Assembly (NCBI RefSeq): GCF_964204645.1
Contig: NC_134028.1
Span: 12,943,263-13,007,262, forward strand
Reading direction: 5' to 3'
Source: Tubulanus polymorphus
Lineage: Eukaryota > Animalia > Nemertea
DNA length: 64,000 bases
Made by a program: the position numbers and the translations under genes. The stretch's first letter is position 1. Each line of letters begins with the position of its first letter. The notes under the pieces are model-generated. The model worked only from the letters and a program-made list of their open reading frames with translations, searched no databases and was not told where the DNA came from. Shown here one piece after another: positions 1-58,612 of this stretch.

Positions 1-271
1 ATAGAATAATTATTATTATTTGAATATATTTGATTATATGAATTTGTGTATTGTAAATAAATCAATTGGTCGCGGAGCGGTAGCGAAGTGGAGCGACCAA
101 TTGATATAATACAATATGCTTTTTAAATTATTGATATCTTAGAATAAATATTTAGTTATAATATAAAATACACACAAAATATATTATAGTTTTAAATTAC
201 TTTTAATGTTTTGTTTTTTAATGAGCTCGACCGTTCGACCTTTGGCTTGAAAGCCTATTATCCCTATTACT
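1..271. mobile_element. Terminus of another Polinton/Maverick-family element (body lies left of the window)
   Basis: 224-271 GAGCTCGACCGTTCGACCTTTGGCTTGAAAGCCTATTATCCCTATTACT is nearly identical to the right terminus of the element ending at 22486. The sequence after 271 (GTCGAG..., candidate TSD) is the repeat also seen at ~38100. Confidence 0.85.
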
Positions 272-1427: not shown

Positions 1428-1437
1428 CCTCAAATTT

Positions 1438-2050: not shown

Positions 2051-2214
2051 ATATAGCTGCAAGCAGCGATAACGGGTTTCTGCCTTTCTGGATAGAATGT
2101 CGTTCAGGGATGCGAGCAAAGATTTCACACGAAATCAGTTCGTCACATGCCGTTTTTTGAAAGAGTGCCACCTAGGGGTCAACTCACAACATGGATATGT
2201 TCACCCACATGTGC

Positions 2215-5177
2215 TTCAATTCAATTCAATTCAATTCAATAGATTTATTTGCATAGAATACAATATGTAAACATATATACAATCTACACAGGCCAAGCAA
2301 AGCCAGAAAGGCCGCTTAACGCTAGCACCCATACAAAAAATCAAACAAAGTACCGTAACAAAAATATACACAAATTATACAAATATGATTAACAATTGAC
2401 TCAGCAGAATGTGGATGCGTAATTATTATGTGATTGATTGTTAATTATACAGTTTGGGGATTCAATAATCTTAAATAACAGTTATAGCAGTTAATATTAT
2501 TGCAAACAGTTAGGTTACTATGAGTGGAGATGAGATAGGTTTTTAACATACATTTAACGGATGATTTACTTAGAAGGTCGATAACGTTACTAATTGGTAA
2601 TGTTCTCCATATATTAGCAAGATATTCTTTCGGTGATTTTGTTTCTTTAAAATGTGGGTTTGTAAGTGAAGAATAGTTGTGGTCGAGGTGAATGCTTTTA
2701 ATGATTAGATAATTTTTTGAGAGAAGATCTGCAGTAAAAAAGTTTTTGAAGTATTTTGGAGGGTTGTTTTTGAGTGTGTCATAGATGAAAAGAGTGGCTT
2801 TAAGTGTGTAGAGATCATTTATTTTGAGAAGATTAAGTTGTTTGAAGAGTGGTTCAGAGTGGGCAGAAAAGTTAGACTTAGTAATAATTCGAGTTATTTG
2901 TTTTTGAAGTAAAAGACATTTTTGCGTGTGTGGTGAGTGACCCCATGATAATATACCATAGTTTAAGTGAGGAAGGACAAGTGCATTATAGATGAGGATG
3001 AGGTGATTTTGATCTAGAATTTGACTGCATTTATAGATGATACCCAGGCCTTGTGAAATTCGTTTGTGAACTTTTTCTGTGTGGGGTTTCCAGTTAAGGT
3101 TTTCTTGTGAAATAATGCCTAGAAAATTAATGTGATCTACTCTACTTATCTCTTTACCTTTAATAAACAGTTTTAGGGGATTTCTCAATGCATTACTAAT
3201 GAAAGGCTTACGTTGACTAGAGTGGAATAGGATAAATTTGGTTTTTTCCATGTTGAGAGATAGTATATTAGCAAGTAACCAATCGTGAAGAGAGTCTAAA
3301 TCCTTATTAACTTTTGTTAGAAGAGAATTTATGTCCCTGTCATACGCCAACCCTGTAGTGTCGTCCGCGAAAAGAACTAAGTCTAAGTTAGGTGTTGAAA
3401 TGTACAAGTCATTGATATAGACAAGGAATAATAATGGCCCGAGGATAGAACCTTGAGGTACTCCACAAGAAATCTCAAGAACAGATGATTTAACAGATTG
3501 AAAAGAAACATATTGGTGTCTGTTTGATAAAAAGGAGGACAACCAATTAAGAGCAGTTCCTCGTATACCGTAGTGCTGAAGCTTATGAATAAGAATATCA
3601 TGGTTGAGCGTGTCAAAAGCTTTAGAAAGATCATGAAAGATTCCAATTGACCAGTATTTGTTGTTGATAGCTGTGGATATACGCTCAGTTAATTCCATAA
3701 TCGCATGTTCAGTTGAGTGGCCCTTTCGGAAACCATATTGAGATGAGGAAAGCTTGTTGTCTAAGTAGCTAATTAATCTATTATGCATGAGCTTTTCATA
3801 AAACTTTGACAGAGAGTTTAATAAAGATATTGGTCTATAGTTTTCTAAGCTCGATTTATCCCCTGTTTTGTGAAGTGGAATTATTTTTGATATTTTGAGA
3901 GAGTTAGGAAATATACCTAATTTAAATGATTGGTTTATAAGATTAGTTAGCGGGGAAGAAATTAGTTAGATAATTTGTTGTAGCAGAAATGTGGATAGCG
4001 AGTCATCGCCGTAACTGTGTTTCGATTTAAGACTGTTTACCGTGCGAATAACTTCCAATTCTGTGACTGGCGTGAGAAAAAAATTAGTATTGTACCTAGG
4101 TGTACGATTTAGATAGTCAATGTATGACTGCGTTGGAGTAGGTAATTTTCTGGCAAGATTTGGCCCTATGTTGTTGTACTGTTTGTTGAATGAGTTAGCG
4201 ATTAAATGAGGGTCCGAGGTTTCTTCATTGTTAATGTTGAAGGTGTGGATAATGTCAGACTTATTGTTAGTTTTACCGATGATAGTTTTGAGAATGTTCC
4301 AGGTTTTTTTAACATTCCCATTGGAAAGAGATAGTGCTTTTTGAAAGTGAAGTTTCTTCGAAAGTTTAATTATCTCATTAAGTTTGTTGCGATATTTTTT
4401 AAAGAGAAAGAGTTCGACTTGATTGGCAATTTCATTTTTTAGGGAGAGTAGATGTTTATATTTCTTATCACGATTATGCGTAGATTGTATGATACCCCTG
4501 GTTATCCACGGTTTTTTTGCCATTCTAAATTCTAAATGGAATTTCTTTTTGGTGGATGATGCATTGGAAATTTGACGGCAAATTTCTGAGGAGAAATTGT
4601 CGAAGTTAGTGTTTACTGTTAGAGATTCATCGAAGGAGGTAAGGATATCGGAGTCTAAAATGTTGTCGTGAATCTTTTTGATGGCAGATTTATCTAAGAA
4701 GTTGTTGGAAAAAGAGAATTAACTGTTTGGTGCTTCTGTTATAGTCGTATTGCAGGTGAAAGTAAGAAAATGGTCGGAAAGCGGAGACGTGACTATACCA
4801 GAAGAGTATTTGTGTGAGCGGTTTGTGAAGATGTTGTCTATTAATGTAGCGCTTTTGTGTGTAACTCTCGTTGGAAGAGTGATAAGGGGTTTGAAAGAAT
4901 TCCAACCATCAATTCAAAGAATCGGGAACTATAGTTTTCATCGTTACACCTAAGAAGATCTATATTGAAGTCACCGCAGATAACTATTTCCTGATTTTTG
5001 TTTTTTAATTTTGCGAGAGTTTGTTTAAATTTAGTAATGAAGTCGGATATGTTGCTATTCGGGGGTCTATACACTGAGCCAATGATCTTATAATCTTTTC
5101 TAAATGTACTTCTCCAAACTTTCACAAATTTCCACTGGAAGATATCATCCTTGCAAGACGTTAAATCATTCATTATA
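2215..5177 (-). mobile_element. L2/CR1-group LINE, 3' portion (rest of APE domain, RT, 3' UTR, (ATTGA)n tail)
   Basis: RT and APE motifs on the minus strand; AATAAA (2244-2249) followed by an (ATTGA)5 tail (2215-2240). The reading frame joins 22487+ once the Polinton and one TSD copy are removed (..RNLQYSI|MNDLTSCK..). Confidence 0.9.
2445..3788 (-). pseudogene. LINE ORF2 reverse transcriptase domain (open fragment of a disrupted ORF2)
   Basis: QYGFRKGHST, DLSKAFDT, GVPQGSILGPLLF and FADD motifs; upstream ORF2 parts (3966-4523, 4841-5177 with YRPP and ICGDFNIDLL) are separated by stops or frameshifts. Confidence 0.9.
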
Positions 5178-5615
5178 AGTAATAGGGATAATGGGCTTTC
5201 AGGCCAAAGGTCGAACGGTCGAGCTCGTAAAAAATGAAAAACATAAAAATAATAACAATTTCTACTTGAATTACTCGCGAAACTCATAAAAATGAAAAAT
5301 AAATTCTCACACGCTCGAATTTATTTTTCATTTTCATGAGTTTCACTCCTAATTCAAGTAGAAATTGTTATTATTTTTATGTTTTTCATTTTTACTCACC
5401 CGCCCGTTCAACCTTTAGCTTGAAAGCCCATTATCCCTATTACTCTTAAAATATTCATATATATATGAATAACATTTAAATCATTGAACTTCTAAAATCA
5501 ATTTTAATAAAAAATATAGTATTAAAATGGAAGCAAATAAATACTACTGCCCAACATGTAATATCGATATAGATAAGTCTCAAAAAGCAAGACATAATAA
5601 AACTAAAACACATTT
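5178..5615 (+). repeat. Left TIR of P1; 5178-5444 is itself a 267-bp imperfect palindrome
   Basis: Reverse complement of 22047-22486. Begins AGTAATAGGGATAATGGGCTTTCA, and 5421-5444 is its reverse complement TGAAAGCCCATTATCCCTATTACT. Confidence 0.95.
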
Positions 5616-5700
5616 GTTTTTAGTCCAGTTGGTTAAAGCAAAAACATTTATCGAATTAAGGAACTCAACATATAGTGAAAAATACGTTGAATCGTTATAA
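5527..5700 (+). CDS. 57-aa mini-ORF whose first ~30 residues duplicate the PolB N-terminal zinc finger
   Basis: Manual translation MEANKYYCPTCNIDIDKSQKARHNKTKTHLFLVQLVKAKTFIELRNSTYSEKYVESL*; same upstream promoter as polB because the TIR includes it. Confidence 0.45.
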   Translation: MEANKYYCPTCNIDIDKSQKARHNKTKTHLFLVQLVKAKTFIELRNSTYSEKYVESL

Positions 5701-5835
5701 ACGCCTGATAATACTCAGCTATATAGTTGGTTGTATTAGCTCTAGTAAACATATGTTACCAGCTTATATTTCAATTGTAAAGAGTTAATTAATTTCATTG
5801 ATCTAAATGCTTTTATTATTGATTTTTTTTCAACT

Positions 5836-6061
5836 TCAACGCGTTGTGTATACGGCGAACGTTAGCGAATCACAAATCTCATAATTTACAAGTCTCAACG
5901 TGTTGTGTATTATACATCATACGGTGGATGTTAGCGAATCACAAATCTCATAATTTACAAGTCTCAACGCGCTTTTTAGATGTTTCTGGACAACTAAGCT
6001 CTAACCAATCAAAAGTCTTATAATTCGCAAGTCTCAACACGCTTGTTCTAGATGTTTCTGG
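5836..6061 (+). repeat. Short imperfect tandem repeats in the P1 left non-coding region
   Basis: GTTAGCGAATCACAAATCTCATAATTTACAAGTCTCAACG occurs twice; CAAGTCTCAAC three times; TAGATGTTTCTGGA twice. Confidence 0.75.
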
Positions 6062-6760
6062 ATATAGAATAGTATAAATAGGCGCGCACATCAGACGCTT
6101 AACATAGCTATAGAATAAATCTATAAATTCACAGCTGTTACAGCTGCCGAGATATTATGAATCATAATCAGAAACGTGTAGAATATTCTAGAAAGGCGCG
6201 CCGGAACTAGATGACGTGGTATAATCAACGATCTAGAAATCACCCCGGAAATGGATATACGCTGTAATATTGTGCTCGGGATATTCTATCTTTCGAAACG
6301 AAATAAGGAGTTTATAGTTTACAATTATAAATCTAAATGTAAGTACTGTTTGTTGTAGTTATTAAGGCTATTAAATATGAAACCTTTAGATATATTTAAG
6401 CGTATTTAGTATATCTTTTAGATAGCTAGAGTTACCGCTAATATCTTTTAGATTAATAAAACGTCATACACATCAAGAAGCGATAGAGAAACTCAAGATA
6501 CTCTTTCTGACTGAGGAATCAACAGCAATGGATATCAAACCAATAGAATCACCAAAAGAAGAAACTATATAAGAATTTCAAAAACATTGAGACTCCAATG
6601 ATTAAGTTTAACATTTGTTAATGTAGTTAAATATTTACCAGCAATTGAAAAAATGTTTGTAATTATAAATTGTATTTATAGAAATCAAATGATGTATTAG
6701 AAGAAATGACTGAACAACTTGTATAATGTATTGTGTAAATCTGATTTGTGAATTTTTATG

Positions 6761-7325
6761 TTCAGTCGTTTCTATTATGTTTAACACATACGCATTAAGC
6801 AAAACCGGCCATAAATGGCCGCATGTAACACATGTAACGCATGTGACGCAGACATGAATGCGTTTGAATTTTCTATGTTCAGTTGTTTCTATTTTACAGA
6901 ATTTATAGAATGAATATATAATTATGATTAACACATATACATTAAGCAAAACCGGCCACAAATGGCCGCATGTGACACATGTAACGCATGCAACGCATAT
7001 GTTGTTTCTATTTTACAGAATTTATAGAATGAATATATAATTATGATTAACACATGTGCATTAAGCAAAACCGGCCATAAATGGCCGCATGTGATACATG
7101 TAACACATGTGTTGTTTCTATTTTATAGAATTTATAGAATGAATATATAATTATGATTAGCGCATGCGCATTAAGCAAAAACGCTCCAATAAGAGCGGTT
7201 TTGCCTAATGCGAACACGTTTTGATATTTCATGTCGGTCGTTTCTATTTTACAGAATTTATTGAATGAATATATAATTATGTTTAACGCATGCGCATTAA
7301 GCAAAACCGGCCATAAATGGCCGGC
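6761..7325 (+). repeat. Five ~110-150-bp tandem units containing palindromes
   Basis: Recurring GTTTCTATTTTACAGAATTTATAGAATGAATATATAATTATG...CATTAAGCAAAACCGGCCATAAATGGCCG. Confidence 0.9.
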
Positions 7326-7470
7326 CGCTTGTATGATTTTGATATCAAGGAATCGAAATGATTTATCAACTACGGCGGCGAGGAATGAAAAAGAACAAGG
7401 AATGGAAAAGAGCAGCACATAGATTTCAAACAAAAATAAATACAATTTTAGTAAAAAATATGTAATATAA

Positions 7471-8145
7471 ATGGAACCAGAACAACCACAAACTATCAAT
7501 ATTACAAATAACACTGGTGTTATAAACATATATTACAAGAAATGTTCTAAATGTGAATTAGATAAATCATTAACAGAATTTAGTAAGCGTAAGATTAGCA
7601 AAGATGGTTTTCAATATTGTTGTAAAACTTGTACTAAACTATACACCAAACAATATCGAGAAGATAATATAAAACATTATAATTATTATATGACAAAATA
7701 TATGAGAGAAAGATATCAAACAGATCTTAATTTTAGATTGAAACAATGCTTAAGGTCTAGATTAACACAATTATTCAACAAAGAAACGCATTCAGAAACA
7801 CTATCTAATTTATTGGGTTGTTCAGATGAATTTCTCAAATCATGGATTATATTTCAATTCGATGATAAAATGAATATAGATAATTATGGGGATTATTACC
7901 ACATTGATCACGTGTTACCAATATCTAAATTTAACATGAATGATGAATACAATAAAAAACTTATTTGGGGTTGGAAAAATTTAAGACCTTTAGAAAAGAA
8001 AGAAAATCAAACCAAATCTAATAAACTAGATTTACAATTATATTTGGAACAGTTGAATAAAGCAAGGAAATTTATTGATTGGTGGAATAGTAACCCACAG
8101 AATGAACAATATGTTGAGGAATTTGATATCAAGGATCCGAAATGA
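7471..8145 (+). CDS. HNH-family endonuclease with N-terminal Cys zinc site (giant-virus type)
   Basis: CSKC...CCKTC; YHIDHVLP...WKNLRPLEKKENQTKSNK HNH motif. A decayed homolog lies at 50554-51100. Confidence 0.8.
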   Translation: MEPEQPQTINITNNTGVINIYYKKCSKCELDKSLTEFSKRKISKDGFQYCCKTCTKLYTKQYREDNIKHYNYYMTKYMRERYQTDLNFRLKQCLRSRLTQLFNKETHSETLSNLLGCSDEFLKSWIIFQFDDKMNIDNYGDYYHIDHVLPISKFNMNDEYNKKLIWGWKNLRPLEKKENQTKSNKLDLQLYLEQLNKARKFIDWWNSNPQNEQYVEEFDIKDPK

Positions 8146-8447
8146 CTTATCTGGACAGTTATAGTTACTGCTCCTAATAGATAGACAATAGTAGTGAGAT
8201 ATCAAATAGAATTCAAATAAAATATATTAAAAAAACAATAACTTCAACTGCTAGTGAATTCTGTTATATTTTTAATATTTTCTTTTCAAAAAGAGAATAC
8301 TTTATATTTTGAATAGATTCAAATAGAAATTCTTTAAATTCAAATAGCTAGTATCAGTAGTCAATACTAGAATTCTTTAACTTTAACTATCTAGTATCAT
8401 TTGAAGAATACTTATAATATTTTTTTTGCTTTTTTTCTCTAATATAA

Positions 8448-9050
8448 ATGTCAAAGAAATCTAATAAGAATAGTATTGATATTGAAAAAACATTAGATGA
8501 TTTGGGTATAAGTGATAATAAAGATACAGTTGCAACTAATTGTGCTCAAGTTAATAACAATATAGATTATGAATACTATTTATATTGTAAGCATCATCTT
8601 GAATTATTAATTGCTGGCGGGAAATCTAAGGACTTCTTAGGAAAAATAATAACTTTTCAAGAACTAGACTCTATGAAACCCGATAAAGTAATAAAATATT
8701 TTAAGATTTATGGAGAGTCAAGATTAGCTAGAATAAACGACTCTATAAGTGATGGTATTGTCAAATGTTATTCTAAGTTATGTAACCAGTTAATACCAAT
8801 TGATGATGAAAATAAATTATATAATGATTTGAAAAATGATTATTTAGTTATGACTGAATTACAAAAATGGGTTGGATACGCTTCATTTCAATTAGGATCG
8901 GTTATGACATTGATTTCTACTGGAGTTATAACATTTTCGAACATCAAACCTATGGAATATAAATCAGGTAAGAACGAAACAGATGTACTACAACAAAACA
9001 TCGAAACAGAAAATGAATCAGAACAAAAATTAACTAAAATAAATGAGTGA
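8448..9050 (+). CDS. Conserved Polinton hypothetical protein (200 aa)
   Basis: Long ORF in very AT-rich DNA, TAAATG start context, homolog at 51356-51860. Confidence 0.75.
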   Translation: MSKKSNKNSIDIEKTLDDLGISDNKDTVATNCAQVNNNIDYEYYLYCKHHLELLIAGGKSKDFLGKIITFQELDSMKPDKVIKYFKIYGESRLARINDSISDGIVKCYSKLCNQLIPIDDENKLYNDLKNDYLVMTELQKWVGYASFQLGSVMTLISTGVITFSNIKPMEYKSGKNETDVLQQNIETENESEQKLTKINE

Positions 9051-9426
9051 TGGAGTTAAGAAAAAAGCTAGATCCGAGAAACAAATTAAATGGGCAAGAG
9101 AATTAGGTAAAAGATCATCAGAATTAAAAAAAGCTAAGAAAAAGAAATTAACTGATATAAATGAATCACAGAAATTATCTGATGATGCCGTACGGCACCC
9201 ACACGGTGGTATTGATTCAAATAATAATCCATCTAATTCTTCTAATAGTGGAAGAAATAATTACTTATATATTACAATTGGGTTAATCACAATTATTATA
9301 TTATCCGGTGTAATATATAAATCAAAATTCAAATCCGATGATAAAGATGATTCTAATGATAATAAACCCATCATACCAGAAAATAAATCAAATGAAAATA
9401 AATCTAAAATATTATTAATGGATTAA
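9043..9426 (+). CDS. Small protein with basic N-terminus and one predicted transmembrane helix
   Basis: Lys/Arg-rich start; hydrophobic YLYITIGLITIIILSGVIY; homolog at ~51875-52237. Confidence 0.7.
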   Translation: MSDGVKKKARSEKQIKWARELGKRSSELKKAKKKKLTDINESQKLSDDAVRHPHGGIDSNNNPSNSSNSGRNNYLYITIGLITIIILSGVIYKSKFKSDDKDDSNDNKPIIPENKSNENKSKILLMD

Positions 9427-9429
9427 AAT

Positions 9430-10518
9430 ATGATGAAAAAAGAACAATATTTAAGAGAGTTATATTATAACCCAGAAAGTGAAGTATCATATTCAAGTGT
9501 TTCGGAATTATGGGATAAAATTAAATCTGATAAAGAAAAAATAAAATATAGTGAATTAAAATCATGGTTACAAAATCAACCCACATATCAAATTCATAAA
9601 AAGATGGATAAAAAATATTTAACAAGAAAAGTTATGGTTTCATATATCGATCAACAATGGCAAGCAGATTTAATTGACATGAAAAACTTAGAAGAATATA
9701 ACAAAGGATATTTCTGGATATTAAATGTTATAGACATATTCAGTAGATACGCATGGAGTATCCCGATTAAAAATAAAACTGGTATAGAAGTTACAAATGC
9801 TTTTAAATCTATATTTAAAGAAGCTATTCCAGATAAAATACAATTTGATGAAGGTAAGGAATTTTATAACAAACATTTTAAAAAACTATTAACTGATAAC
9901 GATGTAGAATATTTTTCAACACATTCAGATAAAAAAGCATCTGTTATAGAAAGATTTAATAAAACATTGAAAACTAGAATGTGGAAATATTTTACTGCTA
10001 ATGAAACATATAAATATATCGATGTGTTAGATGATTTAGTTAAAGGTTATAATAATTCTAAACATAGTTCTATAAATATGAAACCTATACAAGCTAGAAA
10101 AGAAGAAAATTCAGAAATAGTTTGGAATAATTTATATGGAGCATTTGTTACACATGATTTTGGAGAACCTAAATTTAAAATAGGACAACATGTTAGAATT
10201 TCTAAATATCGAAAAACATTTTATAAAGGTTATACCCCAAATTTTACAGAAGAAATATTTAAAATTAAAAAGATAATATTAACTAAACCATTTGTTTATA
10301 AATTGTTTGATTTAAAAGCTGAAGAAATATTAGGTTATTTTTATGAACAAGAATTATCATTAGTACCAAATCCAGATGAAATAGAATACAAAATAGAAAA
10401 AGTATTGAAAACAAAAACTCTTAAAGGAAAAAAGTATTCTTTGGTGAAATATAAAGGATATGATGATAAATTTAATGAATGGATTTTATCTAGTAAAATT
10501 AAAAGAATAAATGAATAA
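9430..10518 (+). CDS. int: Retroviral-like (rve) DDE integrase with C-terminal chromodomain
   Basis: WQADLID, VIDIFSRYAW, IQFDEGKEF, KASVIERFNKTLK; C-terminal YKIEKVLK...LVKYKGYDDKFNEWI. Confidence 0.95.
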   Translation: MMKKEQYLRELYYNPESEVSYSSVSELWDKIKSDKEKIKYSELKSWLQNQPTYQIHKKMDKKYLTRKVMVSYIDQQWQADLIDMKNLEEYNKGYFWILNVIDIFSRYAWSIPIKNKTGIEVTNAFKSIFKEAIPDKIQFDEGKEFYNKHFKKLLTDNDVEYFSTHSDKKASVIERFNKTLKTRMWKYFTANETYKYIDVLDDLVKGYNNSKHSSINMKPIQARKEENSEIVWNNLYGAFVTHDFGEPKFKIGQHVRISKYRKTFYKGYTPNFTEEIFKIKKIILTKPFVYKLFDLKAEEILGYFYEQELSLVPNPDEIEYKIEKVLKTKTLKGKKYSLVKYKGYDDKFNEWILSSKIKRINE

Positions 10519-11107
10519 AGATCTATTTATATTTGAACCACATAATATGTTAGTTACTGGAGTTACAAATTGTGGTAAAACACACTTCATATTATATTTA
10601 TTAGAAACTATTTATAAAAATCATTTCGATAATATAATATTATTCTGCCCAACTTATGAAATGAATGAAACGTATAATAGAGATATAGTTTTTAAAGATA
10701 AAAAGTTTATTATATTAAATTCTAAAACAGTAAAAGATAATTTAGATAATTGTATAAAAATTGCATTAGATATTTATAAAGGATCTAATACATTATTTAT
10801 TATCGATGATTGCGCAAATTTACATGATTCTAAAATTAGAGAAAGCGAGTTATGTTATTTAGCTTTCTCTGGTAGACATTTTGGGATAACAACATGGGTT
10901 TTAAATCAGAAATATAATTCAATTGTGAAAGATTTTAGAGAGAATATAAGATTTCTAGTTTTATTCTACAACAAAGATAGAAAATCTATGCAACAATCAT
11001 TGGAAGAAAATCAAATTATACCTACTGAATTACATGATGAATATATGAATAAATTAAAAAATAATAAAGGTTCAAAATTATTACTGAGATTACAATTTTT
11101 TTTATGA
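10511..11107 (+). CDS. A32/FtsK-like genome packaging ATPase
   Basis: Walker A GVTNCGKT, Walker B LFIIDD, SGRH and LNQKY motifs. The C-terminus is altered by a T-run relative to copy 2 (QFPYEYKFRK). Confidence 0.92.
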   Translation: MNKDLFIFEPHNMLVTGVTNCGKTHFILYLLETIYKNHFDNIILFCPTYEMNETYNRDIVFKDKKFIILNSKTVKDNLDNCIKIALDIYKGSNTLFIIDDCANLHDSKIRESELCYLAFSGRHFGITTWVLNQKYNSIVKDFRENIRFLVLFYNKDRKSMQQSLEENQIIPTELHDEYMNKLKNNKGSKLLLRLQFFL

Positions 11108-11139
11108 ATATAAATTTATAAAATAACTATTTGTATACC

Positions 11140-11228
11140 TATGTATTAGATACCCTAATACCTGATACCCTTATACCTGATACCCTAATACCTGATACCC
11201 TAATACCTGATACCCTATTAGATACCTT
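11140..11228 (+). repeat. 15-bp minisatellite (CCTGATACCCTAATA)n at the convergence of the two gene blocks
   Basis: About four full units plus flanking partial units between the ATPase stop and the stop of ORF 11301-12257. Confidence 0.85.
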
Positions 11229-11300
11229 AAATAATTTAAACCCCCTTTTTTATTTACTATTATTTTATACAATTTTCAACCTTTATTATTCGAGTTTTAG

Positions 11301-12257
11301 TTAATCAATTTCTGAATCACTTTCACTATAAGACGCTAACAATTTATTTAAATGCTCTACCGAATCTTCTTCAACATCTTTATAATTTTTTTTCACCTTT
11401 TTCACCTTTTTCACCTTTTTTACCTTTTTCATATTTTTTACTAAATCATCAATAGTTGTTTTATTGTTAAGTTTATTGATCCAATCAAATTTATCATTAT
11501 TTTCTACTTTAAGTTTTATAGAATCTTTATTATCAATATGTTTAACTGTAACTATATCATCATGTGGGTGTATGACATCATTTTCATTATCATCTTTATT
11601 AGTGTTTGATCCTAATATTTCATTTACAGTGTTTGATCCTAATATTTCATTAGCATCGGTTAAATCTAATTCATCTTTATTAGGTGTTGCTAATAATAAA
11701 TCTTCATATATTTTTTCACCATTTACTTTTTTATTTGAAACAAATTTTGTAACATATCTAAATGGGTGTTCTATAAATTCTCTTAAACCAACACGTTCTA
11801 TAACATTAGTAATATGTGAATTTGTATTCATATGTTTATTCCAATTTGATGGAGCGTTTGAAAATTCACCATTACAATAATCACAATAACTTCTATTTTC
11901 ACTAACATTTAATATTATTGCATTATTATATGTAGAAGGTATTATATTATTTGATGTAGAGGGTACTACAGATGTAGAAGGTATTATGTTATTAGATGTA
12001 GAAGGTATTACATTATTAGATGTAGAAGGTATTACGTTATTAGATGTAGAAGGTATTACATTATTATCAATTACATTACTTAAATTATCAACAACACCAC
12101 TTTTATTATTATCGATTTCTATCAGTTTAGTTTTATAATTTTTAAAAATAGGATCAAATATCAAAGCTATATTACAAGGTATTACATAATATAAACCATC
12201 ATTATTTTCATGTGTATCGATGTATGGAATATGTTTATATACTTTACCTCCTTCCAT
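11301..12257 (-). CDS. Accessory protein with (NNVIPSTS)n repeats, C2H2-like zinc finger and (KKV)n tail
   Basis: CDYC...HMNTNSH; internal tandem peptide repeats; conserved upstream motif. Confidence 0.7.
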   Translation of the reverse strand: MEGGKVYKHIPYIDTHENNDGLYYVIPCNIALIFDPIFKNYKTKLIEIDNNKSGVVDNLSNVIDNNVIPSTSNNVIPSTSNNVIPSTSNNIIPSTSVVPSTSNNIIPSTYNNAIILNVSENRSYCDYCNGEFSNAPSNWNKHMNTNSHITNVIERVGLREFIEHPFRYVTKFVSNKKVNGEKIYEDLLLATPNKDELDLTDANEILGSNTVNEILGSNTNKDDNENDVIHPHDDIVTVKHIDNKDSIKLKVENNDKFDWINKLNNKTTIDDLVKNMKKVKKVKKVKKVKKNYKDVEEDSVEHLNKLLASYSESDSEID

Positions 12258-12289
12258 TTATTATATAAATTTTTATTAAAGTTAAAATT

Positions 12290-13537
12290 TTAATACATAA
12301 CACTATCTAATTGTGAATTTATAATATTTAATTGTGCGTCAGATATAATATAAATGTGCATTTTAAAATTTTTAATTCCTTTTTTCTTTGTCATGAATAA
12401 TTGTATTCCATCTTTAGTGTTCTGTAGTTTTTTCCCAGAACCATGTAATAAGTTATCTTCAGTTGTTCTAAAATCTAACCATAATGCAAATTTATTACCG
12501 GTATAATAATCAATTTGATTAATGTTACAATTTTCAAATGATTTTACTTTTTCATTCATAAAATGTTTTTTAATTTCTACCCATTGATCAATCATTCTCA
12601 TTCCTTGACAAAATATTTTATTTGCTATTCCTTCGATAGTTATTTTTACTTTTGTTATTTCAGGATTATAATAATTATCAACATTTATTGCGCCATTAGT
12701 ATACGTTCCAATAGTAAAAAATATTAATATACCTTTAATAGATCTTCTAGGAAAGTTAATATTCTCATTTATTATTTCATCATTTGCATTAATAGTTACA
12801 GTTTTAAATTTATCAATATAATCATATAATAATGAAAACCCTTGATTGTATTTAGTTTGAATTATACTTGAAATATTTTCATCAGTTACTGTATCATATT
12901 CTAAACATATATTCGATAATTTATAACTCATATCTTTATTAACGCTAGATATTACAATTTCATTTACAGGAGCAAATGTTATCTCAAATATAATATCTTC
13001 TTGAATTGCGTATTTATATAAAGGTGCATTATTATTTATCAATTCAAAGTCTAATGGAATTTTATATTTGCTTCCATATATACTTTTTATTAATTTATCT
13101 ACATCATTTGTTAATATTGCGCTATTAGCTTCTGATCTTAATTTATTTTGGTTTTCTGATTGAATTCCTTGAAATATCATATTATTTCTATTTTCTTTAG
13201 TTAACCATAAATCTTTATAATGCATAAATAAATTATAATCATCTAATGAGAAAACTGTTTCTGGACCAATCTTTATTGTTAACTTTTTAATCAAATATCT
13301 TCCAACATTATCAACAACATAATTATTATTATTACCGATTACTTTTATATCAGCTGATAAATAAATACTGTTTGGAACATAAAAAGTATTTTGTGTTAAT
13401 CTAGGAATTCTAACGTATAAAGTTTCATCGGGATTAATATTTGAAGGGTTATGAGTAATTATATGATGTGATCTTTCTGCTTTAATAGCATTAGATATTC
13501 TATGATTCTTAGAAGGATTGATATAACTCCCACTCAT
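12290..13537 (-). CDS. Putative major capsid protein (double jelly-roll)
   Basis: 415 aa, beta-strand-rich pattern (ETLYVRIP, IYLSADIKV, LIKKLTIKIG, FALWLDFR), typical size and position, strongly conserved in copy 2. The fold is inferred. Confidence 0.75.
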   Translation of the reverse strand: MSGSYINPSKNHRISNAIKAERSHHIITHNPSNINPDETLYVRIPRLTQNTFYVPNSIYLSADIKVIGNNNNYVVDNVGRYLIKKLTIKIGPETVFSLDDYNLFMHYKDLWLTKENRNNMIFQGIQSENQNKLRSEANSAILTNDVDKLIKSIYGSKYKIPLDFELINNNAPLYKYAIQEDIIFEITFAPVNEIVISSVNKDMSYKLSNICLEYDTVTDENISSIIQTKYNQGFSLLYDYIDKFKTVTINANDEIINENINFPRRSIKGILIFFTIGTYTNGAINVDNYYNPEITKVKITIEGIANKIFCQGMRMIDQWVEIKKHFMNEKVKSFENCNINQIDYYTGNKFALWLDFRTTEDNLLHGSGKKLQNTKDGIQLFMTKKKGIKNFKMHIYIISDAQLNIINSQLDSVMY

Positions 13538-13561
13538 TTATTTAACAAAAAAATTAATTAT

Positions 13562-15256
13562 TTATTTTTTGATATTTTTTGATATCATATTTACTAAACC
13601 AAAAATAATAGCACTTACAACTGTAATTAAAAATAAAATAATATGTTCAGCAGCAAAGTTAATAATGTTTCCTGCAGATTTCAATATAAAACCAACAATT
13701 GAAGCAATAACTCCTGGTAATGCTGCAGCAGATTTTTTAGATAGTTCCCATAAATATTTTGCTAATTTCTTTAAACCATCTTTAACTTTATCTTGTATAG
13801 AATTATTACCTGGAGGTTTATCTGGTTTATTTGGAGTAGGAGTAGATTTCAAAGCATTTGATATAGCTAAACCAATTGTTGTAAATACCATAGTTACACC
13901 AGTTAGAATTGAAAGAATTGTTATTCCTTCTAATTTAAATAACAATTTTATTCTATCTTTTAATGATATTTCAGAATCTGGTTTAATCAACAAATCTTTA
14001 AAAATAACTTTTAATTTTTTAATATGATTAAGATCATATGATTTTAATAATATATCTCTTTCTTCTTTTTGTAATTTTATGTTATATTCTAAATCATCTA
14101 TTTCTTTTACTAAAGCTAACTTTCTGCTTTCAAAATCAGCTTCATAAATTACTTGATGATTTCTATTTAATTCTAATTGTTTTAATTCTTCATCTACATT
14201 AACTAATTCTTTTTCTAACATGGTTATTTTAGAAAATCTCATCTTAATATTAGCAATTTCATCAGCTGATACTTGTATACCTTTAATTTCTCTACGTATT
14301 TGTTCAGGAAATGCTTCTAATTCTTCATCAGTTAAATTAAGAAATCCTTTTTCTAGTAAATATTGCAGTCGATTTATTCCAGTTTCAGAACCAGATGTAT
14401 CTGATATACTATTCATCAGTTCTTCTGAATCTCTTAATCTATCAATTTGTTTTTCTAATTGTAATTGACTTGAATAATTATCAATTTGTTGAGTGTCTCT
14501 TCTCGATGTTTCGGGTGTTGAAGATCTCAATCTATCTAATCGATTTCTATTCTCTTCCATTTCTGGATCAAAATCAGTAGGATTTGGATTTGGATTTTTA
14601 AATGGTGAATATTTGTTTATATCAATTTTAGGAATTGGTTTTTCTTCATTTATTCTATCGATTGCATTCCATATAATTCTGAGAAATTCTCTACCACCTT
14701 TTGAATTTTCAATTGTAGATCTTGCTCGCATTTCAGGTTCAAAAATATTTTCTTGACCCATTTTAGATAATTGAATTGTTACAATATTCCTATTTAAATC
14801 AAGATTATAATACCATGTATCATTTTTAAATTCTAAATTATTTGTGAAATATGGGTCATCTTTAAAAATTTGTTCTACAACATCTTCAGTATCAATTTCA
14901 TCTGTTACATCTGATGGTAACAATTCGTTAACAATTGTATCTGTTACTCTAGATTTCATTAAATATAAATCTTCTTTCAATTCAGGATCAGTTGTATTTA
15001 CTAATCTATTCATTAAATCTTTTCTTTCTCTTCTAGTTGTAATTATACCCCTTTCAGGAGCTTCTAAATATTTATTTAATTTTTCACGTAATTCGGGATC
15101 ATCATCATCATCATCTTCACCTAAATTAGTATTATATGTTGATTCATCATTATTATCAATATTAGCACCTGCATCATTATAATCATCATCAATATATCCT
15201 TCATTATCATTTCCCATGTCATCCAATGGAATATCTTCTCCACCTTCTACATCCAT
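13562..15256 (-). CDS. 564-aa protein: acidic N-terminus, coiled coil, C-terminal hydrophobic/TM segments
   Basis: D/E-rich start; heptad region; ITILSILTGVTMVFTTIGLAI, ALPGVIASIVGFIL and IILFLITVVSAIIFGLV hydrophobic stretches. Confidence 0.8.
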   Translation of the reverse strand: MDVEGGEDIPLDDMGNDNEGYIDDDYNDAGANIDNNDESTYNTNLGEDDDDDDPELREKLNKYLEAPERGIITTRRERKDLMNRLVNTTDPELKEDLYLMKSRVTDTIVNELLPSDVTDEIDTEDVVEQIFKDDPYFTNNLEFKNDTWYYNLDLNRNIVTIQLSKMGQENIFEPEMRARSTIENSKGGREFLRIIWNAIDRINEEKPIPKIDINKYSPFKNPNPNPTDFDPEMEENRNRLDRLRSSTPETSRRDTQQIDNYSSQLQLEKQIDRLRDSEELMNSISDTSGSETGINRLQYLLEKGFLNLTDEELEAFPEQIRREIKGIQVSADEIANIKMRFSKITMLEKELVNVDEELKQLELNRNHQVIYEADFESRKLALVKEIDDLEYNIKLQKEERDILLKSYDLNHIKKLKVIFKDLLIKPDSEISLKDRIKLLFKLEGITILSILTGVTMVFTTIGLAISNALKSTPTPNKPDKPPGNNSIQDKVKDGLKKLAKYLWELSKKSAAALPGVIASIVGFILKSAGNIINFAAEHIILFLITVVSAIIFGLVNMISKNIKK

Positions 15257-15272
15257 TTACATAATAAAAAAA

Positions 15273-16661
15273 TTAAAATTTAAAATATAATATTCCTCCG
15301 ATTACAATTCCTATACAAGTTATAGCTAATTTAGTATTTTCATGGGATTTATTATCATCATTTAGTTTAATTATATCATGTTGAATTTTATCAGTTCTAT
15401 TATTTTCTGATGTATTGTAATCTTTTATTTTAGAATCATTATTTAATTTAATATTCTTAGTTTTAGTTTCAGTTGATTGAATATGTTTTTTATTTTTTTC
15501 ACCTTCCATTAATTTTGGAGCAGTAATAATCTTTTTATTTATATCATTCAATCCAAATGAATTATTTATTGTTGCAGTTTTAATTAGATTATTATAACCA
15601 ATTATATTTCCCATCTTCAATACTAAATCATTAGAAATAATTAATAGATTAGGGCCTATACAATAATTAAGTCTTACATGAGATTTATCTAAATAATTTT
15701 GATATCTTATAATGTTTTCTGGAATCGATCTATTTTTATCATTATGAATTGAATCTTCAAATAAAACTTTAAACTGTTTTTGTGTATCGAATGATGTATT
15801 CAAATTTCCAATTATTGGGGATCTTGTTTCAACTTGTGATCCTAGAATACAAATCAAATAAGTTCTAATAGATTGATTTATTCTTTCTATACCTGATTTA
15901 GTAAAACCTTCACTATTTTCTAAAATAAAATAAACCCAACCATTTTTGTTTTCTTGTTTTAAATTATCATAAAATTTTGGTAATTTATTGAAATTGAATG
16001 TTTCTAAATCCTTTGTTTCTATTTTACCATAACCTAATTTTTTATTATAGATATTATAAAAACTATTAGATGGTATAGGAAGTGCACAATATTCTGCAAT
16101 CTTTTTAGGGCAAGGAAGTGATCTTATTGTTCCAATTTTTGTTCTAAAATCAGAATTATTTATATCTATATTAAATTCATTGCAAATTTTATAAAACTTA
16201 GATAAATTAATATTATTATCTAATTCTTTAAAATATCTAGATCCTGGTAAAGCACACTCTAATTCATTTAATATTATTCTGATTTGAAAGTATGTATGAA
16301 ATCTAAATAAACTTTGAATTAGTTTATATTTAGAATTATTCAAATGATCATTCCAACTAATTCCACATCCTGTTGTTGCACAATAAACAGCAAAATTTAA
16401 TTGGTTCTGCCAATACTTCATATTAGATTTTAATAACCATTGTTTTTCATCTTTCAATTTTTTAAAATTAATTAAATATACATGAAATATATTTTCCATC
16501 TTTGCATTAAAATTATTAGTTTCAGTAACATAAATTTCTAAATTAGTTAATGAATCTAAAACTTCATTTCTATATGTAATATCTTTATTAAAATCTATTG
16601 CTGGAATATTATATTTAATTGATTTATTATATCGGAAAGTTTTTGGAAAACTATCTACCAT
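15273..16661 (-). CDS. 462-aa conserved Polinton protein with C-terminal membrane anchor
   Basis: WQNQLNFAVYCATTGCGIS conserved in copy 2; C-terminal LAITCIGIVIGGILYF. Confidence 0.78.
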   Translation of the reverse strand: MVDSFPKTFRYNKSIKYNIPAIDFNKDITYRNEVLDSLTNLEIYVTETNNFNAKMENIFHVYLINFKKLKDEKQWLLKSNMKYWQNQLNFAVYCATTGCGISWNDHLNNSKYKLIQSLFRFHTYFQIRIILNELECALPGSRYFKELDNNINLSKFYKICNEFNIDINNSDFRTKIGTIRSLPCPKKIAEYCALPIPSNSFYNIYNKKLGYGKIETKDLETFNFNKLPKFYDNLKQENKNGWVYFILENSEGFTKSGIERINQSIRTYLICILGSQVETRSPIIGNLNTSFDTQKQFKVLFEDSIHNDKNRSIPENIIRYQNYLDKSHVRLNYCIGPNLLIISNDLVLKMGNIIGYNNLIKTATINNSFGLNDINKKIITAPKLMEGEKNKKHIQSTETKTKNIKLNNDSKIKDYNTSENNRTDKIQHDIIKLNDDNKSHENTKLAITCIGIVIGGILYFKF

Positions 16662-16679
16662 TTATATAACTAAAAAAAT

Positions 16680-17115
16680 TAATAATTTATTAATTCTTTT
16701 AATAATTTATCTTGTTCTTCAACTGTTATATGACCATTTAAACTTATTATATAATCTAGTGTGTTCTTTAATTTATTAATTTCTTTTTTATATTAGATTT
16801 TATTTTTTCTTTATTACTTTTTATATTTAATTTTGAACTTATACCAGTTAAAACACTTGAACTTAATCCTAATACACCAATTGATATAGCTAAAGGTGTT
16901 AATGGACTGAATATTGCTAGAAATGTTATTACAGAACTAATTGTAACCGAACCACTGATAATAAGATAATATATAATTTTACTTTTTAAATATTTTTTCT
17001 TTTTTATCTTTAAGTCACTTTCAAATTCTAATATTTGTTTTTCTAAATATGTTTTTAATTTAGTTTTATTTATATCATGAGGAATAATATCAATACTATC
17101 AACTTTATCTTCCAT
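16680..17115 (-). pseudogene. Two-TM membrane protein, C-terminally frameshifted in P1
   Basis: ORF 16768-17115 stops early relative to the intact 144-aa homolog at 57501-57935; two hydrophobic segments. Confidence 0.7.
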
Positions 17116-17134
17116 TTATTTAGAATAAAAATTA

Positions 17135-17538
17135 CTAATTAGTAAACTTATAAGCAACAAATATAACAATAACTAAAATCCAAATTATTTCATATTTCTG
17201 TTGTTCTTTACTTGGGGTATAATAATCTGATAATTTAGGTTTGTATAGATGTAATTTTTCTTTATTGGTTACCGCGTTATATAAACTCATTGCATCATCA
17301 ACTGATTGAAAATCTCTATGTGAAATCTTCTGATCATATAATTCTTTATTGATGTAATCCATATAGTTTTGTTTCTTTTCTCTATATTCTTCTGCAGCTT
17401 TATTGTATTTCTCTAACGTCTTCTTTGTTCTCCTAATGAACTATTTTTATCAATATGCTTAAATAAATAACCACCACCAGTAAATGCTAAAGCGTTAACA
17501 ATTGCTGATCCTATAATAGTTATAATTGCAGAAGCCAT
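17135..17538 (-). pseudogene. Membrane protein (MASAIITIIGSAIVNALAFTGGGYLF...), frameshifted
   Basis: ATG at 17538 in T7-N6-TAAATG context with a hydrophobic N-terminus; ORF 17135-17362 supplies the C-terminal part with a TM tail. Confidence 0.65.
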
Positions 17539-17562
17539 TTATTTAGCAAAAAAATTATGCAT

Positions 17563-17784
17563 TTATATGGGAGGAATATATTTTTGTTTTTCCAAATAAT
17601 CAATAGTTAAATTAGATAAAGTAACTGCTAATGTTAACTTTAAAATATCATTTATATCAAATCTATCAACATTAACACTTCCCATTTTGAATACTTTTTT
17701 TAATACCATTGAATAACCAACAGTTCCAACTGATAGTAATGCGCCATTATATAATCCAGTTATTATCCACTTATTATCACTCAT
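17563..17784 (-). CDS. 73-aa small hydrophobic protein
   Basis: Tightly packed ORF with T7-N6-TAAATG start; two amphipathic or hydrophobic segments. Confidence 0.7.
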   Translation of the reverse strand: MSDNKWIITGLYNGALLSVGTVGYSMVLKKVFKMGSVNVDRFDINDILKLTLAVTLSNLTIDYLEKQKYIPPI

Positions 17785-18126
17785 TTATTTATCAAAAAAA
17801 TTACTATCATCAAAATATTTAGTTAACTTATTTATGATTAATTCAACATTTATTTCATTACTACTTTTATGATTATCATATATTTTGGATAATATGTTTT
17901 TGATATCTTCAATAATTCCATCTTCATTTAATTCATAATATTCTAAAGGTGATTTAATTAAATCAATTACTTTTTCTATATTATACTTTTCTTTATCAAT
18001 CATTGATGCATTGTTAAATGATTTACTTTTTATATCAGTAATTACATCATTTAGTTTAATTCTCATTTCTTTACCATGTTTAAAATCAAACCCAAAACAT
18101 ATACTCGGTCCAACAGTTATATTCAT
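17785..18126 (-). CDS. 113-aa hypothetical protein
   Basis: T7-N7-TAAATG start; its stop abuts the next ATG. Confidence 0.65.
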   Translation of the reverse strand: MNITVGPSICFGFDFKHGKEMRIKLNDVITDIKSKSFNNASMIDKEKYNIEKVIDLIKSPLEYYELNEDGIIEDIKNILSKIYDNHKSSNEINVELIINKLTKYFDDSNFFDK

Positions 18127-18143
18127 TTATATAGTGAAAAAAA

Positions 18144-18901
18144 TTACTCTCTACATCTTATAACTAATTCATAAATTACAGGGAAATTATTTAAATCAAT
18201 TAAGTATCCATTATGATTTCTTATTTCTAATCTAAAATTATTAAATTTAGGAATGCAAGGTTTGAAATCACATTCTGTTAAATTATAATTTATTTGCGTT
18301 CCAAATTCTTTAACATTTTTTAATGGTAAAATATTTAATATACTAGAATTACATGTTGTATCTTTAGTTGCTTCGAATGTTTTTGTTGGGTCAATTAAAT
18401 TGCAATAAATATAAAAATGTGTAAAAGGTATTATATTTGAAATACCTTCTACGTTTACTGTAACAACATCTGGTTCAATTCCTAGCAATTTAGCTATAGG
18501 TTTTTTACCATAAATGCATGTTGACTTTCATCAAATACCTTTATTTTAATTCTATTTGAGCTATCACTTTTTATAAATCTTATTAAAAATTTATCATCTT
18601 TTCTAATTTTCAACCGTGCTCTACGATTAATTTCTTGCGCTAATGTTTCTAAATTATATAATCCTGGTCTTAGAAATAGATGAAACAATTTATTTATATT
18701 TCTAATATGAATTAAAAAAGTATTATGTTCAATAGTTTTATTCGATATATTGTAAAAAGAATTACATAAACTTATATTTACTAATTTTAAATCTACACAA
18801 TTTTTGAATTCTCTATCTAATTGTACTAATAAATTATGTGATTTATAATTTGTAAGTTTTCTAGAATCAACAAATATTCTGTATTCTTTTAATTCCGCCA
18901 T
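18144..18901 (-). pseudogene. Putative minor capsid (penton) protein, split by a frameshift
   Basis: ORFs 18494-18901 and 18144-18488 together give YRIFVDSR...LVNISLCNSFYNIS and FYIYCNLID...FRLEIRNHNGYLIDLNNFPVIYELVIR, a typical penton pattern. Confidence 0.7.
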
Positions 18902-18918
18902 TTATTTTACATATTTTC

Positions 18919-19260
18919 TTATTCGAAATCTATTTCATGGTGCCCTTTTTCATTCTTACCTTTGTATACGAAATAGAAATCTCCAGAACATAATTCTTCT
19001 AGATCTTCACTTGATAATCTATGAAATCTATCTGGTAAATAAGTTCTGAATTTATGTGTATTTTCTTTTAATCCTTCATATTCTAAGTGTATAACTAATT
19101 TATCTCCATATTTGTTAGTAATTGTAACAATATTTGTAATTAAATATTTCTTGTGAATTGTTAACTCAGTTAGTTTTTTAAATTTATAATCTACAGATTT
19201 GACGCTTGAAGTATCTTTAATTCTATCTAAGAATTCACTGTGTACTTGTTTACTCTCCAT
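18919..19260 (-). CDS. 113-aa conserved protein adjacent to polB (possible OB-fold ssDNA-binding protein)
   Basis: Conserved in P3 (63269-63623); beta-rich; TNKYG and YLPDRF motifs. Function is inferred. Confidence 0.7.
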   Translation of the reverse strand: MESKQVHSEFLDRIKDTSSVKSVDYKFKKLTELTIHKKYLITNIVTITNKYGDKLVIHLEYEGLKENTHKFRTYLPDRFHRLSSEDLEELCSGDFYFVYKGKNEKGHHEIDFE

Positions 19261-19288
19261 TTATTATACAAATTTTTATTGAAATTTA

Positions 19289-22135: not shown

Positions 22136-22486
22136 TTTAATACTATATTTTTTATTAAAATTGATTTTAGAAGTTCAATGATTTAAATGTTATTCATATA
22201 TATATATGAATATTTTAAGAGTAATAGGGATAATGGGCTTTCAAGCTAAAGGTTGAACGGGCGGGTGAGTAAAAATGAAAAACATAAAAATAATAACAAT
22301 TTCTACTTGAATTAGGAGTGAAACTCATGAAAATGAAAAATAAATTCGAGCGTGTGAGAATTTATTTTTCATTTTTATGAGTTTCGCGAGTAATTCAAGT
22401 AGAAATTGTTATTATTTTTATGTTTTTCATTTTTTACGAGCTCGACCGTTCGACCTTTGGCCTGAAAGCCCATTATCCCTATTACT
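22047..22486 (-). repeat. Right TIR of P1; 22220-22486 is the 267-bp fold-back
   Basis: Reverse complement of 5178-5615; overlaps the polB start codon. Confidence 0.95.
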
Positions 22487-22492
22487 ATTATA

Positions 22493-28767: not shown

Positions 28768-28768
28768 C

Positions 28769-28781
28769 TGGTGCCGAAACC
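28769..28781 (+). promoter_or_regulatory. Primer binding site complementary to tRNA-Phe 3' end
   Basis: TGGTGCCGAAACC one base after the LTR; matches the first 13 nt of the tRNA-Phe PBS TGGTGCCGAAACCCGGGA. Confidence 0.8.
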
Positions 28782-28833
28782 GTATTGATTAATTATTGTG
28801 TCGAGCTTTTATTATTTGTAATTTATTAATTTT

Positions 28834-29897: not shown

Positions 29898-29971
29898 CTT
29901 TGAGGGATTCTAGATTGCTTAACACTGAGGATCATACATTTTCTTTCTATTAATATTATTATCAATTGTTT

Positions 29972-50077: not shown

Positions 50078-50199
50078 AGTAATATGGTTTTAGTTGTTCT
50101 ATACCAAAGGTCGAAGGGTCTAAAAATAAATTCTCGCACACTCGAATTTATTTTTCGACCCTTCAACCTTTGTTATAGAACAACTAAAACACTATTACT
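50078..50199. repeat. 122-bp terminal fold-back of P2
   Basis: AGTAATATGGTTTTAGTTGTTCTATA... pairs with ...TATAGAACAACTAAAACACTATTACT; same central loop as P1. Confidence 0.92.
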
Positions 50200-57935: not shown

Positions 57936-58612
57936 TTATTTAGAAAAGAAATTACTAATTAGTAAATTTATACGCCACAAATATAACAATAACTGTTCCA
58001 CCTAAAATCCAAATTATTTCATATTTTTGTTGTTCTTTACTTGGGGTATAATAATCCGATAATTTAGGTTTATATAGATGTAATTTTTCTTTATTTGTTA
58101 CTGCGTTATATAAAAGTAATAGCGGTAATAGGCTTTCAAGCCAAAGGTCGAATGGTCGAGCTCGTAAAAATGAAAAACATGAAAATAATTACAATTTCTA
58201 CTTGAATTACTCGCGAAACTCATAAAAATGAAATATAAATTCTCACACACTCGAATATATTTTTCATTTTTATGAGTTTCACTCCTAATTCAAGTAGAAA
58301 TTGTAATTATTTTCATGTTTTTCATTTTTACTCACCCGCCCGTTCAACCTTTAACCTGAAAGCCTATTACCCCTATTACTCTTAAAATAATCATATACAT
58401 GAATAACATTTAAATTGACAGATTATTCAATATAAAAGTGTAAGCTCTTATAGAATAGATATATAGATATATTTACAACATTATTTCAATAATTATATTT
58501 GTATGAGTTAGATTTTAAACATTAAAAGTGTTAGTAAAGTGTGATTGAAATAATACATGATATAAATCATTGAACTTCTAAAATCAATTTTAAAAAAAAA
58601 TTTAGTATTAAA

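Follow-up and report, generated by a model that had tools for sequence, protein, structure and literature searches.

The window analyzed here, a 64,000-nucleotide stretch of the genome of the nemertean Tubulanus polymorphus (contig NC_134028.1), is eukaryotic, repeat-rich DNA and includes a complete Polinton/Maverick of 17,309 bp (P1), as well as ends of related elements (P0, P2, and P3; Table 1). As expected of a Polinton, P1 has terminal inverted repeats (TIRs; 99.1% identity over 440 bp) with AG...CT tips and a 6-bp target-site duplication (TSD), ATTATA, on either side. Its polymerase (pPolB) and integrase were recognized by Pfam (PF03175, E=4e-14; rve, E=2e-9, plus a chromodomain). Two endonuclease-VII-like modules are present, one as a pPolB domain and one as a stand-alone ORF, and a sequence search of the endonuclease-VII stretch against the PDB returned chance matches only. 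A profile of the 415-aa putative capsid ORF had no match in the PDB, and the single-sequence fold of this ORF had a pLDDT of 31.6. No Pfam match to an adenain-like maturation protease was obtained among the P1 ORFs scanned, where a diverged gene is possible, and the protease-like ORF of a related locus (L130), used as a query, found no protease match in the window. Likewise, the 14 P1 ORFs of at least 113 aa gave no Pfam match to an HUH/SF3 Rep protein, and neither P0001 nor the P1 integrase retrieved relatives among viral contigs. In three related loci (L143, L144, and L146), the order on one strand is tip, small ORF, pPolB, endonuclease ORF, and integrase; in P1, pPolB is inverted and lies at the opposite end, its first codons are captured by the TIR, and the small neighbor of pPolB (18919-19260; 65% to L146) sits behind it.

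Table 1 Positions of the Polinton features in the window
Feature	Position	Strand	Remarks
P1, complete Polinton/Maverick, 17,309 bp	5178..22486	.	Tips 5'-AGTAAT...ATTACT-3'; TIRs, ATTATA on both flanks, pPolB, rve-chromo, A32 ATPase
P1 left TSD, ATTATA	5172..5177	+	
P1 right TSD, ATTATA	22487..22492	+	
P1 left TIR	5178..5615	+	Extends beyond the hairpin into the first pPolB codons
P1 right TIR	22047..22486	-	
P1 left terminal fold-back, 267 nt	5178..5444	-	Outer arm 5178-5306, loop 5307-5316, inner arm 5317-5444; the - strand has its 3' end at the tip
P1 right terminal fold-back, 267 nt	22220..22486	+	Identical to the left one, inverted; the + strand is 3'-terminal here
Conserved mismatch nt 35	5212..5212, partner 5410	.	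C.A on 5' strand, G.T on 3'-terminal strand; also in P2 and P3
Bubble 1	5222..5226, partner 5396-5400	.	3'-terminal strand: T.G, G.T, tandem A.G/G.A
Bubble 2	5274..5278, partner 5345-5349	.	3'-terminal strand: G.G (G-C in 55% of reads), tandem A.G/G.A, G.T
Loop, 10 nt	5307..5316	-	GA...GA on 3'-terminal strand; common to P1, P2, and P3
Stand-alone endonuclease-VII/HNH-like ORF, 224 aa	7471..8145	+	PHROG 1035, E=3.7e-18
rve integrase with chromodomain	9430..10518	+	Pfam
A32-like packaging ATPase	10511..11107	+	
Probable major capsid protein, 415 aa	12290..13537	-	Weak Capsid_N matches in 12/30 aligned homologs, best E=3e-4; window protein itself unmatched
P1 pPolB, 948 aa	19289..22135	-	Carries endonuclease-VII-like domain; ~400 residues (TP/vOTU region) absent in frame, present in relatives and P3
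P0, right end of related element	196..271	+	Outer-arm homolog only; small GC-rich hairpin at 58-108
P2 left terminal fold-back, 122 nt	50078..50199	-	Arms differ; loop and nt-35 mismatch as in P1
P3 terminal fold-back, 266 nt	58115..58380	-	
P3 pPolB	58613..63239	+	Stops and frameshifts; TP/vOTU region retained

P1 has inserted into a - strand LINE-like element (2445-5177), with a reverse transcriptase at 2445-3788 and endonuclease-like motifs, recognized by eye, at ~4841-5177. The left noncoding region of P1 contains tandem 110-147-bp repeats and a 70-bp duplication (6735-7355, 5850-6062). Elsewhere in the window, 27512-42631 resembles an LTR retrotransposon, with direct repeats that are 99% identical and ~13.9 kb apart and with gag and protease ORFs.

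The outermost part of the P1 TIR is itself an inverted repeat. An initial annotation had described such repeats of 267 bp at both P1 ends and at the P3 end, and these stand: the two P1 copies are identical and inverted, the P3 copy measures 266 nt, and the folding z-scores are -24.0 (P1) and -21.8 (P3), with none of 200 shuffles being as stable. Identity between outer and inner arms is 0.89 in P1 and 0.87 in P3. The annotation had overlooked a fourth fold-back, of 122 bp, at the left end of P2 (which begins at 50078 and is interrupted at 58114, P3 beginning at 58115 in the opposite orientation and with a broken polymerase), so that four of the five visible ends in the window fold back. The fold-back and the element share their outer border to the base, and in P1 the inner copy pairs with the tip through its last base, the interior remaining as a template. 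The fifth end, that of P0, shares the outer 76 nt with P1 at 87%, and no partner arm occurs within its 271 nt up to the window edge; P0 may be a longer, branched end truncated by that edge. The small hairpin of P0 and a central hairpin of L146 (L146:305-335) have CCACTTCG in common (CGAAG on the other strand). As had been claimed, the same arm is outermost at all five window ends, all of which belong to integrated copies. Flipped isomers of the kind typical of poxvirus and AAV ends, which the annotation had proposed to look for, were seen neither at these ends nor among the loose read ends listed. An assembly artifact was ruled out by the agreement of both P1 ends, the diverged copies, the raw reads, and independent contigs. 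P2 also contains an AT-rich inverted repeat (53989-54380; 105-nt arms, 89%) where P1 has a 318-aa ORF, and a very high-copy 32-34-bp repeating unit (50022-50055) lies immediately outside its tip.

Changes in one arm of the fold-back are in part mirrored in the other. Between P1 and P3, eight substitutions fall in the outer arm and eight in the inner arm, of which four in each are mirrored (nt 11, 16, 67, and 76; hypergeometric p = 4e-4), and these four had been named correctly at the outset. At nt 25 both arms are changed in opposite directions; the other P1/P3 changes are one-sided, and P3 has private unmirrored ones. Raw WGS reads with the same species label (run X6, ~12% read) placed 11,323 reads on the P1 end; a read can be placed on either arm and subfamilies are mixed, and the figures given here are those of the entries listed, beyond which there are further variants (117 and 32) and loose ends (396 and 108). 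Common P1 variants were mirrored at 5188/5434 (57%/59%), 5193/5429 (46%/40%), and 5245/5378 (43%/62%). In the P2 family, all seven outer-arm variants listed were either mirrored (five) or pair-restoring (two), and all six of the unmatched inner-arm variants listed form G.T or purine.purine pairs on the 3'-terminal strand, with partners perhaps among the further entries. Read joints at the P1 end, with skips of 57-73, correspond to stems shortened in both arms. Strand-changing reads near the loop (81 at 5326/5334 and 13 at 50153/50156) are either a library fold-back artifact or variant hairpin centers.

The reads also locate the element border. At the P1 outer tip the depth rises from 21 to 3742, and 1879 loose ends with mixed sequence mark insertion junctions; at the inner copy the depth continues (2094 to 1757), and none of the six loose ends listed for X6, the smallest with 354 reads, lies at 5444. 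P2 shows the same pattern, with 237 loose ends at the outer tip, a depth of 241 to 273 across the inner copy, and no junction reads at the inner copy among those listed. The outer tip is covered about twice as deeply as the sequence behind the inner copy (3742 versus 1757 for P1 and 400 versus 273 for P2), and many tips in the genome therefore belong to subfamilies with another inner arm or none.

The mismatches in the stem show a strand bias. On the 3'-terminal strand, 12 of the 13 P1 mismatches are G.T (six) or purine.purine (six; sign test p=0.003), as are 15 of 17 in P3 and four of five in P2, figures that come from three elements of common ancestry and include adjacent, nonindependent mismatches. 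The same strand closes the loop with GA...GA and is the better folder in four of five hairpins (P1, P2, P3, and L166); in L146, which counts against a strand bias, the energies of the two strands are near equal (-69.5 versus -69.4), and the loop on the 3'-terminal strand is C-GAA-G. When P1, L146, and L166 are pooled, G.T pairs remain biased (19 versus 7; p=0.03) and purine.purine pairs do not (15 versus 13), the central L146 alignment being unreliable. Read variants at 5274 (55%) and 5309 (60%) convert G.G and G.T to G-C. In sequence contexts of this kind, tandem G.A pairs form stably in DNA. Judged from the sequence, the mismatches likely make sense as G.T and G.A pairs, that is, as the folding of the 3'-terminal strand. 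Loops of the GNA type closed by sheared G:A pairs are described in the accessible text of two studies (PMC5449611, PMC4513846). The bubbles, the loop, and the C.A mismatch (5212/5410) are kept as first described, but not the invariance of "CTC," since 5274 is G in 55% of the reads and the kept core is TC/TC (GA/GA on the other strand). The idea of a structured end signal is supported, the fold being kept across unalignable arms and different lengths with its border at the tip, whereas the view of the mismatches as unpaired applies to the strand then read and not to the 3'-terminal strand, on which they would pair. Nothing supports the suggested mimicry of a helper-virus telomere.

Conserved mismatch positions, together with a motif, GG(T/G)(C/T)GA, repeated twice near nt 30-46 in P1, P2, and L146, could instead mark a site that proteins bind or cut during excision, integration, or packaging and that does not serve as a replication template. 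A cruciform might be cut by the endonuclease-VII-like domain, or a packaging protein might recognize the mismatches, as in vaccinia, where hairpin mismatches are required for packaging and not for DNA synthesis (PMC8956199, accessible text); a packaging ATPase and a probable capsid protein are indeed encoded. We consider this quite unlikely, given that a cruciform folds both strands while the mismatches are tolerated by one strand only, and that the endonuclease-VII-like domains, which also occur in many relatives whose termini are out of view, are read as homing-type insertions. Tandem G.A and G.U pairs would also suit a hairpin acting as RNA, for example, as an outward antisense transcript forming long double-stranded RNA, and the AGTAAT...ATTACT ends of the 267-bp unit would suit an independent MITE capping the element, as the initial annotation had considered. 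Both are most improbable: the border of the fold is the DNA tip, and the hairpin matched Rfam only to three miRNA precursors, all far under the gathering scores; no duplication surrounds the unit (ATTATA versus CTTAAA), its flanks differ in P1, P2, and P3, the junction reads listed lie at the outer tip only, and the unit varies with its element.

Fold-backs of this kind were also found outside the window. A metagenome contig, L146, whose pPolB is 80% identical to that of P1 (P0002), has, ahead of its first gene, a 257-nt fold-back that runs from AGTAAT to ATTACT, and L166, with a pPolB that is 38% identical, has one of 129 nt running from AGTAGT to ACTACT, with 5.6 kb outside it that contain no ORF of 100 aa. 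The start of L143 lies within such a hairpin, with the inner tip copy visible. The arm sequences cannot be aligned past 21-38 nt, the best local alignments with P1 being 36 nt (L146) and 21 nt (L166). A lack of the fold-back in other copies, which had been named as evidence against a structured end, was seen in P0, within its 271 nt, and in L133 (a contig starting GTAGTAGT); P2, P3, L146, and L166 have one. AG-starting fold-backs were detected at the four window ends and in 2 of the 48 related loci scanned; with looser settings and 63 loci, the sole addition was a 38-nt repeat in L144. These counts do not measure prevalence because these distant pPolB loci mostly do not reach a recognizable terminus. 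The 446,081 bp of control phage loci, which are unrelated matches of a 15-nt arm pattern, contained no AG-starting fold-back, and the loop pattern had no match in the viral and metagenome collections. Among Polintons the feature looks patchy, and P0 and L133, together with the excess of read depth at the tip, indicate that the structure is not needed by all of them. In L130, a 184-bp hairpin (4657-4840) separates divergent endonuclease-like and pPolB genes; its ACTACT and AGTAGT point inward, and it could be a circle junction or an internal origin. Polinton-type pPolB genes also occur on contigs of 21 loci from prokaryotic MAG records (L148-L168), probably through host contamination.

These comparisons bear on whether the fold-back is a neutral by-product, in which template switching duplicated the tip, gene conversion homogenizes the arms, and the mismatches are merely inherited. 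Conversion alone would suffice for the mirrored changes, P1 and P3 are closely related, fold-back lengths vary widely, and the accessible text of a 2026 preprint on Halocafeteria names accidental annealing as an alternative. We nevertheless regard a neutral origin as very unlikely, as the fold-back persists across unalignable arms and 38% polymerase identity, the nt-35 mismatch and the loop survive although 0.9 of the stem is homogenized, and the mismatches are strand biased. The fold-back is real, conserved, and probably functional.

The polymerase family provides a candidate partner for this structure. In 54 sequences of the terminal protein (TP)/vOTU region, a Cys and a His are invariant and a Ser is present in at least 90%. 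A structural model of the L143 TP (pLDDT 84) has a four-to-five-stranded sheet and two helices, with the Ser in the loop that connects helix 2 to the last strand. Its fold matches the pPolBs of adintoviruses, bidnavirus-like elements, and mavirus, and there is a weak match (E about 2e-3) to Y-family little-finger domains. Such a fold and Ser position are known from TP domains, and TP has been linked to the Y-family little-finger fold (10.1101/2024.03.18.585575, accessible text). From the modeled fold, the pPolB of the family is predicted to keep an intact TP/vOTU module and so to be protein primed. In P1 itself, a gap at window position 21638-21649 removes ~400 residues spanning TP, vOTU, and zinc finger while leaving the frame open. 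This loss may be a one-off decay or the mark of a spreading TP-less subfamily. A TP-less lineage in which hairpins replace protein priming was ruled out, since P3 and the relatives keep the TP region.

We propose, with a probability of about one in two, that the fold-back is a 3' snap-back telomere that forms on single-stranded intermediates and serves protein-primed initiation and tip repair, by analogy with Streptomyces. Each end is a mirror repeat in which the tip occurs again on the inner side. Once excision or pPolB displacement releases a strand, its 3' end would snap back, and pairing of the last 60-130 nt with the inner copy would rebuild a duplex tip locally, with no need for a 17-kb panhandle. 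The snapped-back 3' end would be shielded, and the folded end would offer a structured template at which TP-pPolB primes at the tip and recopies the hairpin, so that its orientation never flips. The tip could be repaired or corrected from the inner copy, and new mutations would spread to both arms as the folded strand is copied and its mismatches are corrected, while the G.T and tandem G.A sites would persist as recognition features that may also distinguish the true tip from the inner copy. In favor of this model we count the fold-back at the exact tip, the conservation of structure over sequence, the mirrored changes, the strand bias, and the fixed orientation; all of these come from integrated copies and their sequence, from which we infer the replication step. 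Against it counts that P1, which is young (identical hairpins and intact TSD), lacks the TP region.

That same copy favors a rolling-hairpin cycle, in which the snapped-back 3'-OH itself would prime second-strand synthesis and a nuclease, perhaps the endonuclease-VII-like domains, would reopen the hairpin-closed duplex. Self-priming is hard to set aside because a paired 3'-OH is itself a primer; the inner copy pairs to the last base of the tip and leaves the interior as a template, the same strand bias would be expected, two endonuclease-VII-like modules are at hand, and the mechanism, known from parvoviruses, is modeled in the Halocafeteria preprint for short palindromes of virophages as well as Polinton-like viruses (PLVs). 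It appears doubtful all the same: AAV-type resolution should produce flip and flop, while all five window ends have the same arm outside (flipped ends could, however, be filtered out by integration), junction reads at the inner copy are absent among those listed (<354 versus 1879), the TP serine and the protease dyad are conserved in the family, no HUH/Rep protein was found by Pfam in the 14 P1 ORFs, and the TP loss is specific to one copy, P3 retaining the region. The packaging or excision signal, the neutral duplication, the RNA hairpin, and the MITE cap are less likely than either the snap-back telomere or self-priming. An unlikely combination of the two is that 3' snap-back self-primes to give a hairpin-closed duplex, which is then reopened at the old tip by the endonuclease-VII-like domain, with TP priming patching the 120-270-nt overhang; reopening at the old tip with TP patching would leave no flip. 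If true, these Polintons would follow a never-described cycle and would stand, as a living intermediate, between DNA viruses primed by protein and those primed by hairpins.

To our knowledge, the exit of Polintons from the chromosome and the start of their replication without a protein already on the ends have been modeled but not tested. A terminal structure that is conserved, strand specific, and of defined size offers a concrete substrate, with predictions as to which strand folds, whether it flips, and whether the ends are protein bound or closed. The systems compared below are cited from the accessible parts of each source. Adintovirus-type Polintons/Mavericks have (AGT)2-like ends (PMC8097293; PMC8502044; 10.1101/2023.08.22.554363), and the window elements resemble them in size (15-20 kb), ~440-bp TIRs, a 6-bp TSD, and AG...CT tips, as well as in encoding pPolB with TP/vOTU, an rve integrase, a packaging ATPase, and a probable capsid. 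They differ in the AGTAAT tip, in the inward duplicate that forms an imperfect fold-back of 122-267 bp, and in that no maturation protease was found in P1. The terms "hairpin" and "palindrom" are absent from the accessible text of PMC8097293 and of the nematode paper, and such ends in pPolB Polintons are not described in the parts available of PMC8097293, PMC8502044, 10.1101/2023.08.22.554363, 10.64898/2026.10.13.758929, PMC11296320, and PMC8242256. In this literature, whose scope does not extend to Kapitonov and Jurka 2006, Pritham 2007, Repbase, or supplements, so that an earlier mention is possible, we found no long mismatched terminal fold-backs in pPolB Polintons, only the short palindromes of the Halocafeteria preprint. 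Those palindromes occur in protist virophages and PLVs, mostly without pPolB, and hairpin priming has been proposed for them. They share with the window Polintons a position at the TIR extremity beside the TSD and an rve integrase; they are 52 nt long in the subtype pictured and are found preferentially with non-pPolB replicases, whereas the window fold-backs measure 122-267 nt, belong to a pPolB family with a predicted TP, and combine conserved strand-biased mismatches with covariation.

Parvovirus and poxvirus telomeres are likewise imperfect terminal hairpins, comparable in size and interrupted by bubbles (PMC8242256, PMC8956199), and for some parvoviral ends a single orientation is found (PMC8242256). 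Unlike these viruses, the window Polintons integrate by rve and encode a protein-primed polymerase, and neither a Rep/NS1 protein nor flip/flop was seen. The TP-capped telomeres of Streptomyces have 3' overhangs that form a fold-back containing sheared G:A pairs, and this fold-back serves for the repair of truncated ends (PMC5449611, PMC4513846). The likeness would lie in a linear DNA with a terminal protein, whose 3' strand folds back so that the tip pairs with an inner copy and the fold-back templates priming and repair. A 3'-strand fold-back with purine.purine pairs, as in Streptomyces, is predicted in P1-P3, and L146 has a GAA loop, the pattern being weaker in the stems of L146 and L166. 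Streptomyces telomeres have several short palindromes in ~170-180 nt, an internal origin, end patching, and separate Tap and Tpg proteins, whereas the window Polintons are integrating elements with one long stem and show no homology; the resemblance is one of working principle only. The terminal structure suggests convergence with Streptomyces and parvovirus telomeres and widens the range of terminal palindromes, which had been associated chiefly with non-pPolB elements, to include a family predicted to have a terminal protein.
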